32,000 nucleotides of DNA from Staphylothermus marinus F1 (lineage in GTDB: Archaea > Thermoproteota > Thermoprotei_A > Sulfolobales > Desulfurococcaceae), in the NCBI RefSeq assembly GCF_000015945.1, contig NC_009033.1:930001-962000 (forward strand). Reading direction: 5' to 3'. A model generated the notes under the pieces. The model ran no database searches, was not told the DNA's origin, and saw only the letters and a list, made by a program, of their open reading frames with translations. Both the position numbers and the translations under genes were made by a program. Position 1 is the first letter of the stretch. The number at the start of each line of letters is the position of its first letter. Of the stretch, positions 19,791 to 21,598 are shown one piece after another.

Positions 19791-20519
19791 ATGATGAAAC
19801 AACCATCACGTAAAACCTCGCTACTTATAAGTCAGGTAAGTATATTGTTGATTTCTTTAGTGACAGCTTTCATTCCACAATATTACATATATATTTTCAT
19901 ATTATACTTCATCATAATAATGGCTTTCATGTTTAGAAGTACTAGGAAAATGAGCAAGATACCTCCTAAGAAAGAACTGGGATCGCCATTGTTCAAGGAA
20001 AATAATGCTATAAAAATAGCAATGCTGGATAAACTCTTAACAGCTGAGTTAAAAAAACAGTTTACAGCATCTATGAGTTTACTATTATTAACTTTCTTAG
20101 TGTTCATAATATTTCCTCTCTATAGACAATTCGTATTTGTCCCAGTACATGAGCTATTATCGAGTATTATAGGCAATCCCGTCCTCGTCAACTTCTTAGA
20201 CTTCTTTATAATGTATGAATTTGTATTCGGTATCCTCAGTATACTTAGATTCTTTATTATGGGTAAAATGAGCGGAGTCAACATTATGTTGCCACAGAAC
20301 TTCATACTCTATAAAAAGGGGATCATCGCCAATGATAGGTTCTTCATAGAATTAACAAGCGATCTATGCTATAAATATGATTTAAAGAGGCATTTCGTAG
20401 AGTTAAGGAGTAGAACTAATAAGAATTTCAGAGTAAGATTATATACTGATTCTACATCTGACCTGTTAAACAAGATTAAGGATTTAGGGGTTGTTCAGTG
20501 TGCCGAAGAAGAAGTATAA
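19791..20519 (+). CDS. Hypothetical membrane protein
   Basis: The 242-aa ORF has about 4 predicted TM helices followed by a soluble C-terminal domain. No family is recognised. Confidence 0.5.
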   Translation: MMKQPSRKTSLLISQVSILLISLVTAFIPQYYIYIFILYFIIIMAFMFRSTRKMSKIPPKKELGSPLFKENNAIKIAMLDKLLTAELKKQFTASMSLLLLTFLVFIIFPLYRQFVFVPVHELLSSIIGNPVLVNFLDFFIMYEFVFGILSILRFFIMGKMSGVNIMLPQNFILYKKGIIANDRFFIELTSDLCYKYDLKRHFVELRSRTNKNFRVRLYTDSTSDLLNKIKDLGVVQCAEEEV

Positions 20520-20742
20520 CTGTATAGTTTGCGGTAGAGTATTTCCTGAGGGACAAGGTATTATTATAGAATATGATGGTCTACTACTTACCTTCCATAG
20601 CAATAGATGTGCATCCAAGTTTTTCAGGGAACTGCTTGAAAGAGTTCCTCCCGACGAGTTAAAAGATTATATTAAACGCTTAGTTTCAGAGTATAATGAA
20701 AGGCTGGAGGCTTTTAGAAAGCTTAGATCAAAGAAGATATGA
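20491..20742 (+). CDS. L24e-like/TRASH-type zinc-ribbon protein with a helical basic tail
   Basis: YNCIVCGRVFPEGQGIIIEYDGLLLTFHSNRCASKFF follows the ribosomal L24e pattern C-x2-C-G-x3-P-G-x-G...DG...F-x-S-x-x-C-x3-F. It lacks the usual L24e C-terminus and operon context. The start is TTG 20491 or GTG 20500, and the ORF overlaps the upstream membrane-protein gene. Confidence 0.55.
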   Translation: MFSVPKKKYNCIVCGRVFPEGQGIIIEYDGLLLTFHSNRCASKFFRELLERVPPDELKDYIKRLVSEYNERLEAFRKLRSKKI

Positions 20743-20799
20743 TCAGTTCGCGGTAATGTCTTCATCCCCTACGGGTCTCTGGGGGGCAAGTGTCTTCAT
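20743..20799 (-). ncRNA. C/D-box sRNA candidate with variant AUGAAGA C and C' boxes
   Basis: On the minus strand the layout is AUGAAGA(C)-CACUUGCCCCC-CAGA(D')-GACCCGUAGGGG (small CCC/GGG hairpin)-AUGAAGA(C')-12 nt CAUUACCGCGAA-CUGA(D). It is a GC-rich island in AT-rich DNA. The D box abuts the stop codon of the convergent 20491-20742 gene. Confidence 0.5.
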
Positions 20800-21056
20800 C
20801 TCGTAAAGAAATTATTGTTTCTGCAGTGTTTTAATTCTATTCTTTATATCTTCTACTATCTTATCTGTTATGCCCATTTTTACTGCTAATGAGTAAGCTT
20901 TTTCTAATGCTTCTTTCTCACTAGAAGCTTTAACATTAAATATTATGTTTGTCCCAATTATTGCTACTCTATATCTTGTATCGCCTAGGAAAATATATGA
21001 TTCAATTATTCGGAAATGTGATTTGCTGAGCAGTTTTATTCACCTATGTATTGTTT

Positions 21057-21106
21057 TCAGCTAAACCCTGCCTTCATCACTAATCAGTGATCGAGGGCTT
21101 CTTCAC
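21057..21106 (-). ncRNA. C/D-box sRNA
   Basis: On the minus strand the layout is GUGAAGA(C)-12 nt AGCCCUCGAUCA-CUGA(D')-UUA-GUGAUGA(C')-13 nt AGGCAGGGUUUAG-CUGA(D). It starts 9 nt downstream of the HIT gene stop codon. Confidence 0.7.
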
Positions 21107-21115
21107 CATTAATAA

Positions 21116-21598
21116 TCATTCCCAGTTTTCCCTTATTATCCTATATGTTTCTTGTAGGCTAATAGGCAGTGTCTTTGTTGAAGCAATTATAGCCATGAAA
21201 TTAGAGTCTCCAACCCATCTAGGAACAACGTGTATGTGTACATGTTCTTCTACACCTGCACCTGCGGCTCTCCCAATGTTTAATCCTATGTTGAAACCAT
21301 CTGGGGTAAATGATTTACGTAATGCTTTTATGGATCTGTTAAGTAGTTCTATCATCTCCGTCAGAATTTCTGGTTCTAGATCCTCTATTGAAGGCGTATG
21401 TTTATATGGTACTATGAGTAGATGCCCACTATTATATGGGTAAGCATTGAGTACTACATAGGAGTATTTTCCTCTGTAAACAATATATGCTTCATTATCT
21501 TTTTTCTTAGGTAATTCACAGAATATGCATATCCTCTTGGGTTTTAATGTGGAACGTATATATTCGTATCTCCAAGGGTTCCAGAGTATTCTGTACAA
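21116..21598 (-). CDS. HIT (histidine triad) family nucleotide hydrolase/transferase
   Basis: The 160-aa ORF contains CIFC..., NAYPYNSGHLLIVP, and the histidine triad VEEHVHIHVVPRW. Confidence 0.85.
   Translation of the reverse strand: MYRILWNPWRYEYIRSTLKPKRICIFCELPKKKDNEAYIVYRGKYSYVVLNAYPYNSGHLLIVPYKHTPSIEDLEPEILTEMIELLNRSIKALRKSFTPDGFNIGLNIGRAAGAGVEEHVHIHVVPRWVGDSNFMAIIASTKTLPISLQETYRIIRENWE

Follow-up and report, generated by a model that had tools for sequence, protein, structure and literature searches.

Directly downstream of a HIT-family hydrolase gene on the minus strand of the genome of Staphylothermus marinus F1, an archaeon from hot vents, two apparent box C/D small RNA (sRNA) genes bracket an open reading frame that has no conventional start codon near its beginning, which raises the question of what these elements are, how they are transcribed, and whether the frame is a working gene or the remnant of one. 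The window analyzed is a stretch of 32,000 nucleotides, and positions given below are those of the window unless prefixed by G000, for the genome as a whole. The genome is a single contig of 1,570,485 bp with 35.7% GC, as published (PMC2678158). Three small functional units are held in 360 bp: sRNA A (21106-21057), a small gene (21033-20812) and sRNA B (20799-20743). The explanation considered likely for the whole locus is that of two C/D guides for 16S rRNA and a CUG-initiated gene whose leader is sRNA A, sRNA B having a promoter of its own. All of the features are of known kinds; modest follow-up is warranted for the CUG start and for the unnamed protein family.

The HIT gene (21116..21598, minus strand, 160 aa; Pfam HIT E=1e-18) ends with a TGA at 21118-21116, and a gap of 9 nt then precedes the C box of sRNA A, as a preliminary description of the locus had reported. 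Gaps of 23 nt and 12 nt follow between sRNA A and the small gene, and between the small gene and sRNA B, respectively. On the plus strand, a convergent gene for an 83-aa L24e/TRASH-like zinc-ribbon protein (20491..20742; Pfam L24e E=0.019, below the cut-off) has its stop codon directly against the sRNA B D box of the opposite strand; synteny shows this gene beside the small gene in most of the order, including places from which HIT is absent.

By pairing and orthology, sRNAs A and B are archaeal box C/D methylation guide sRNAs of the ordinary type. In both, C, D', C' and D boxes occur in order with guides of about 10-13 nt (in sRNA B the D' box is degenerate, with an invariant GA), and a strict C/D pattern was found three times in the window, on A, on B and at 19668-19618, versus 0 in 200 third-order Markov copies. 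All boxes of the two same-strand sRNAs first described stand where they were placed. Aligned with the rRNAs of S. marinus itself, both sRNAs showed pairing with 16S: complementarity of at least 9 bases, covering the +5 base, was found for the D' guide of A (11 nt), the D' guide of B (11 nt) and the D guide of B (9 nt), and the D guide of A pairs over 3+6 nt with one mismatch, which is allowed for double guides. The two D' guides had been overlooked in the preliminary description. Boxes and guides of A and B are kept in relatives, with published orthologues, and RNA-seq support comes from these orthologues in other species (PMC4644070). L7Ae, Nop5 and fibrillarin would assemble on the boxes, and 2'-O-methylation of 16S is predicted five bases from each D or D' box, at C1308 and probably A1289 for sRNA A (helices 41/42) and at C528 and G504 for sRNA B (helix 18). 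E. coli 16S numbers derive from the PMC4644070 alignment and from counting without gaps from the 515F site. The literature yielded no map of rRNA modifications for S. marinus.

Searches with Rfam C/D families left both sRNAs sub-threshold (A, E=0.004; B, E=0.17), with scores below gathering thresholds for snoPyro_CD (28.3 vs 45 bits) and sR17 (19.6 vs 36 bits); since the Pyrococcus models are guide-specific, a fit was not expected. The third C/D sRNA of the window, at 19668-19618 on the minus strand, keeps its synteny across the family, matches Rfam sR5 (E=1e-5), and has a D guide that pairs 12/12 with 23S (G000:1121063). A simple pattern scan of the S. marinus genome gave 12 C/D sRNA candidates with at least 9 nt of complementarity to rRNA; in the genome paper, the RNA genes listed total only 45 (PMC2678158).

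The boxes of sRNA A, read on the minus strand, are C GTGAAGA at 21106-21100, D' CTGA at 21087-21084, C' GTGATGA at 21080-21074 and D CTGA at 21060-21057. The D' guide (21099-21088) has an 11-nt pairing with 16S that 0.2% of shuffled guides match, and its predicted target is Cm1308 (G000:1118793). The D guide (21073-21061) pairs over its 3+6 nt with the adjoining upstream stretch of 16S, with one A.C mismatch at C1293, and probably targets Am1289 (G000:1118774); taken alone, this pairing does not reach significance against shuffled guides. A 23S target for the D guide (8 nt, G000:1122403) was rejected, as it falls in an intron-like insertion of S. marinus and misses the +5 base. Introns in S. 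marinus 23S are known, and the intron-like hairpin insertion in domain V lies at G000:about 1122360-1122415.

Homologues of sRNA A were found across the order, with boxes and guides kept and spacers variable. sRNA A is an orthologue of Sac-sR112 of Sulfolobus acidocaldarius, which shares both guides and the site directly after the HIT gene, and which was represented by 4172 RNA-seq reads and mapped to the 16S 1280-1310 region (PMC4644070 supplement). The two systems differ in that U1293 of Sulfolobaceae 16S pairs with the guide A, in place of the A.C mismatch of S. marinus, and in that the small gene was not found in 10 Sulfolobaceae genomes beyond one marginal match.

In sRNA B, the C box (ATGAAGA, 20799-20793), C' box (ATGAAGA, 20765-20759) and D box (CTGA, 20746-20743) are clear on the minus strand. 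Its D guide had been described as complementary to the 530 loop over 9 contiguous nt, and this holds against the organism's own 16S, with 9 contiguous Watson-Crick bases at G000:1117943-51; 3% of shuffles equal it, and the predicted target is Cm528 (G000:1117945). The D' guide makes an 11-nt pairing with 16S at G000:1117918-28, just upstream of the 530-loop match. The D' box is most likely GAGA at 20779-20776, and the target Gm504, since an invariant GA stands at near-fixed guide distance in most of 45 homologues; for the same reason CAGA at 20781-78, which would target Gm506, is less likely. Per-sequence folding places a short stem-loop between D' and C' that is variable and often present in the 45 homologues. 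The two sRNA B targets cover both strands of the 16S pseudoknot 505-507/524-526, and as it covers both, sRNA B may pace the folding of the helix-18 pseudoknot.

A model built from homologues finds sRNA B in 13/13 family genomes sampled and in most other families; the same search did not find it in Sulfolobaceae. On the evidence of guides and targets, sRNA B is an orthologue of Ignicoccus hospitalis sR206 and Pyrobaculum calidifontis sR07, the guides being near-identical, in the same order and directed to the same helix-18 positions (C528 and about G504/505). For sR206, 3400 RNA-seq reads, targets at 16S 505 and 482 in the paper's numbering (about E. coli 528 and 505) and a proposed chaperone role have been reported (PMC4644070). 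sRNA B differs in its degenerate D' box and the stem-loop before C', in the conserved register that would set the D' target at G504 and not G505, and in being tied to the small gene in Desulfurococcaceae, unlike sR206 and sR07. A hairpin insertion of about 55 nt in 16S (G000:1117965), just 3' of the sRNA B target, is absent from the congener, presumably S. hellenicus, and matches the known Staphylothermus intron locus 548.

The nesting of sRNA genes at gene ends and their fluid synteny are well described. Archaeal C/D sRNA genes at the ends of protein genes (Tripp 2017, reviewed in PMC7994747; PMC6009581) lie near or overlap 3' and 5' ends, as here, and have in common with this locus stop codons within boxes, antisense contact with a convergent gene, and a shifting synteny. 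From these nested genes there is no difference of kind, the only extra being an uncalled gene in the middle. At loci L003, L004, L005, L006, L019 and L030, and in several Sulfolobaceae, the HIT frame extends into sRNA A, through its C box and D' guide, and is closed by the TGA within the D' box; the HIT frame of Staphylothermus ends sooner, which has freed sRNA A.

The preliminary description proposed a polycistronic transcript from which the sRNAs are excised. Of this, co-transcription of sRNA A and the frame very probably stands, and the message of the small gene must begin in or before sRNA A, because only 23 nt lie between the D box and the start and a Shine-Dalgarno sequence is used. A single polycistron running from the HIT operon promoter through HIT, sRNA A, the small gene and sRNA B, with both sRNAs excised, is the strongest of the rival explanations and is nonetheless thought rather unlikely. 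It would account for the shared strand and the tight gaps, for the full order being present in 12/29 family loci, and for a HIT-sRNA A link that reaches Sulfolobaceae, with HIT often ending inside the sRNA. Co-transcription of archaeal sRNAs is also common, and no terminator-like hairpin was found at the locus in a bacterial-type scan (sigma-70 promoter/terminator), which is ill-suited to archaea.

Against one obligatory polycistron, each sRNA has a TATA-like signal some 30 nt upstream, which is the distance expected of a promoter element. The element inferred for sRNA A (21132..21140, minus strand) is within the HIT coding sequence at approximately -34 to -26 from the C box, and that for sRNA B (20828..20836, minus strand) is within the 3' end of the small gene. 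When homologues are aligned on the C box, A/T peaks at 89-97% at -32..-28 for sRNA A (37 sequences) and at 79-87% at -33..-30 for sRNA B (47 sequences), and in relatives whose corresponding stretch before sRNA B is intergenic, clear TATA boxes are present. HIT leucine codons in the sRNA A TATA window are TTA in 19/21 cases versus 73/271 (27%) elsewhere in the same HIT genes, a comparison of related sequences and not an independent test. TATA-like words are common at 64% A+T, and clear TATA boxes precede only about 20% of archaeal sRNA genes according to a review. The arrangement is also fluid: sRNA B follows the frame in 25/29 family loci and sRNA A precedes it in 14/29, sRNA B is inverted in one genus, two genomes of another have both sRNAs inverted side by side, a third genus has B at a different site, and A was not found in a fourth. 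In view of these signals and the rearranged layout, it is more likely that sRNA A forms the 5' leader of the small-gene message and that sRNA B has a separate promoter. A promoter in the 3' end of HIT would then make a two-part RNA of sRNA A leader and small gene; with sRNA A cut free a few nucleotides beyond its D box, the message would retain the Shine-Dalgarno; sRNA B would be transcribed from its own promoter within the 3' end of the small gene; and read-through from HIT may add longer transcripts.

As described, the middle frame (21039-20812, minus strand) is open for 75 codons and has no early canonical start, although the first ATG, GTG or TTG (ATG 20877, codon 55) opens the last 21 codons and not the last 20. 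Its resemblance to a real protein is borne out by conservation, with a single copy in 42/42 good-quality Desulfurococcaceae genomes and one match each in 51/61 relatives. It is present in most other non-Sulfolobaceae families searched within the order, and in a 301-genome sample of the phylum it was confined to the order apart from two marginal matches. The frame's third codon is a CTG (21033-21031), missed earlier, which lies 6 nt downstream of GGTGA (21040..21044, minus strand, within AGGTGA), a Shine-Dalgarno sequence complementary to the 16S 3' end; the genome-wide mode of Shine-Dalgarno spacing in S. marinus is 5-7 nt. Intact starts sought in relatives were found exactly at the CTG position in 18/28 other orthologues (ATG/TTG/GTG) and within codons 1-3 in 27/28. 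Both Staphylothermus species have CTG at codon 3 and the nearest outside relative, 90% identical, has TTG there. A change from TTG to CUG that predates the divergence of the two species is the most likely origin of this start.

It is thus most likely, judging from this alignment with canonical starts in orthologues, the lack of a canonical start nearby, a stop just upstream, the usual Shine-Dalgarno spacing and purifying selection after CUG arose, that the small gene (20812..21033, minus strand) starts at CUG 21033 and encodes a 73-aa product. Translation would proceed from this codon via the normally spaced Shine-Dalgarno. The 23-nt spacer before CTG is 22/23 identical in the congener, and the comparison of the two coding sequences gave 9 synonymous and 8 non-synonymous differences (dN/dS 0.22, binomial p=0.004). 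By branch, S. marinus has 5 synonymous and 0 non-synonymous changes, and the congener 4 of each. The conservation, together with this dN/dS between CTG-bearing species, indicates that the gene is alive; on conservation, position and selection, it is a real, family-wide functional gene and not a pseudogene.

The start-less pseudogene put forward in the preliminary description is accordingly set aside. A recent Staphylothermus pseudogene, with its start lost and its frame decaying, would be consistent with the absent canonical start, with the equal changes on the congener branch, and with a review that has sRNAs overlapping 5' ends depressing the downstream gene and perhaps creating pseudogenes; it is very improbable for a gene core to the family, with a frame intact in both species at dS 0.22, and an almost unchanged Shine-Dalgarno spacer. 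The idea of a non-canonical start was well founded, but not the ATA or ATT suggested for it: initiation at ATA 21039, which is the first codon of the frame and has a precedent in the ATC start known in S. marinus, or at GTG 21043-21041 followed by a frameshift, is given hardly any credence, as ATA directly adjoins GGTGA (a 0-nt spacing shared by 5 of about 360 cases in the genome), the GTG belongs to the Shine-Dalgarno and opens a frame of just 13 codons with no matching extension in relatives, and orthologues begin at the CTG position.

A probable consequence of the rare CUG start is that the small gene was missed by gene finders; a gene caller left it out of S. marinus Logan contig L091, and the homologue search returned nothing above 90% identity to the small protein. 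A Desulfurococcaceae core gene appears to be missing from Staphylothermus gene calls due to its CUG start, and sRNAs A and B, having published orthologues, make two added annotations.

CUG is listed as a start in NCBI translation table 11. For archaea, a review of initiation names AUG, GUG and UUG and no other start (PMC7531240), and start codons of S. marinus are given as 59% AUG, 8% GUG and 33% UUG, with CUG not listed. Odd starts appear to be tolerated in Staphylothermus, which lends support to that of the small gene. A 1038-aa gene at G000:582825 (minus strand, locus L180/L181) is probably a second CUG-start gene: in S. marinus and the congener alike it shows AGGTGA-N6-CTG, closely preceded by an in-frame stop, and in most relatives a canonical start lies no more than four codons away. 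The rpl12 gene (G000:1052934, plus strand) has an ATC start behind a strong Shine-Dalgarno, as published for S. marinus (PMC2678158). Known prokaryotic near-cognate starts, rpl12 ATC included, resemble that of the small gene in being Shine-Dalgarno-led, one base off AUG and in a conserved gene. The difference here is the apparent use of CUG, in two genes in which both Staphylothermus species share that codon. With these CUG genes and the rpl12 ATC, this cultured hyperthermophile lends itself to experiments on near-cognate initiation in archaea.

AlphaFold predicts for the small protein a three-stranded beta meander followed by two helices (pLDDT 94.7). The protein is basic, with a pI of 9.7 (medians of 9.0 in closer orthologues and 8.1 in the wider family). 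R20, R22 and N33 do not vary among close orthologues, and E11 and Y13 hardly do; by strand register these five residues are inferred to share an exposed face of the sheet. Structure comparison yielded weak matches (Z up to 4.2, Foldseek E above 0.09, an atlas TM of about 0.5); dsRNA-binding domains were frequent among them, followed by HicB-like, eL20 and PurS domains. The dsRBD, HicB/TTHA0281, eL20/LX and PurS folds all have, like the model of the small protein, a three-stranded meander packed on a helix (Z 3-4), and LX and PurS also have a short strand-helix motif in common with it; in contrast, none gives a significant sequence or profile match, and the N-terminal helix of the dsRBD is absent. 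Nothing significant was found in PDB sequences, Pfam, NCBIfam, ESM Atlas, Foldseek (PDB, viral) or VIA-align, and no family model reaches its cut-off. A ribosomal eL20/LX paralogue was rejected (hhalign probability 24% over 21 columns, with the true LX elsewhere in the genome), as was PurS (PRK05783, 16 vs 96 bits; best Pfam PurS E 0.005), for which there was no match in 4 family genomes and for which the S. marinus genome shows none. Named homologues are all hypothetical except for one automatic "small metal-binding protein" label, which the sequence does not support.

From the predicted fold, the basic charge and the conserved residues, a role in nucleic-acid binding via the exposed sheet face, for example as a lineage-specific accessory protein of the ribosome or an RNP, is tentatively proposed, at somewhat less than even confidence. 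A more specific version is doubtful: that the protein is an unrecognized, order-specific factor in ribosome or sRNP biogenesis, kept for that reason between two 16S guides beside the L24e-like gene, and that its synthesis is coupled to guide assembly, with L7Ae binding and processing of the sRNA A leader setting translation. Control by L7Ae through k-turns in 5' leaders is well described. Under such coupling, the CUG start in Staphylothermus would damp translation in place of a Shine-Dalgarno within the D guide. At loci L007, L008, L013, L015 and L034, from two genera, the small gene starts 0-3 nt after the D box of sRNA A, so that any Shine-Dalgarno there must be the GGGGT inside the D guide. 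As lineage-specific crenarchaeal ribosomal proteins have turned up among unannotated small genes, this unnamed family of the order is worth a look in ribosome proteomics.

There remains the unpaired A in the D guide of sRNA A, for which the plain explanation is a tolerated mismatch or guide-guide pairing. In several families with C opposite it in 16S, most guides retain the A, and a perfect GGCGGGG guide was not seen among the homologues; in some of these, either the A or the target C is bulged out. A separate role for this A, leaving C1293 open for acetylation or pairing with an edited U, has in its favor that pattern of retention, that C1293 is the middle C of a CCG, the motif on which ac4C sits in Pyrococcus, and that snR4, snR45 and SNORD13 are eukaryotic analogues, but is scarcely credible given that single mismatches are tolerated in C/D double guides, that Pyrobaculum sR135 covers the site with a perfect guide (PMC4644070 for both), that the same A pairs with U in Sulfolobaceae and can pair with the D' guide inside the sRNA, and that Pyrobaculum ribosomes carry few ac4C. 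Two further genomic matches fall in near-identical, GC-rich structured repeats at G000:1516051 and 440536 (minus strand), which resemble the ends of insertion elements.
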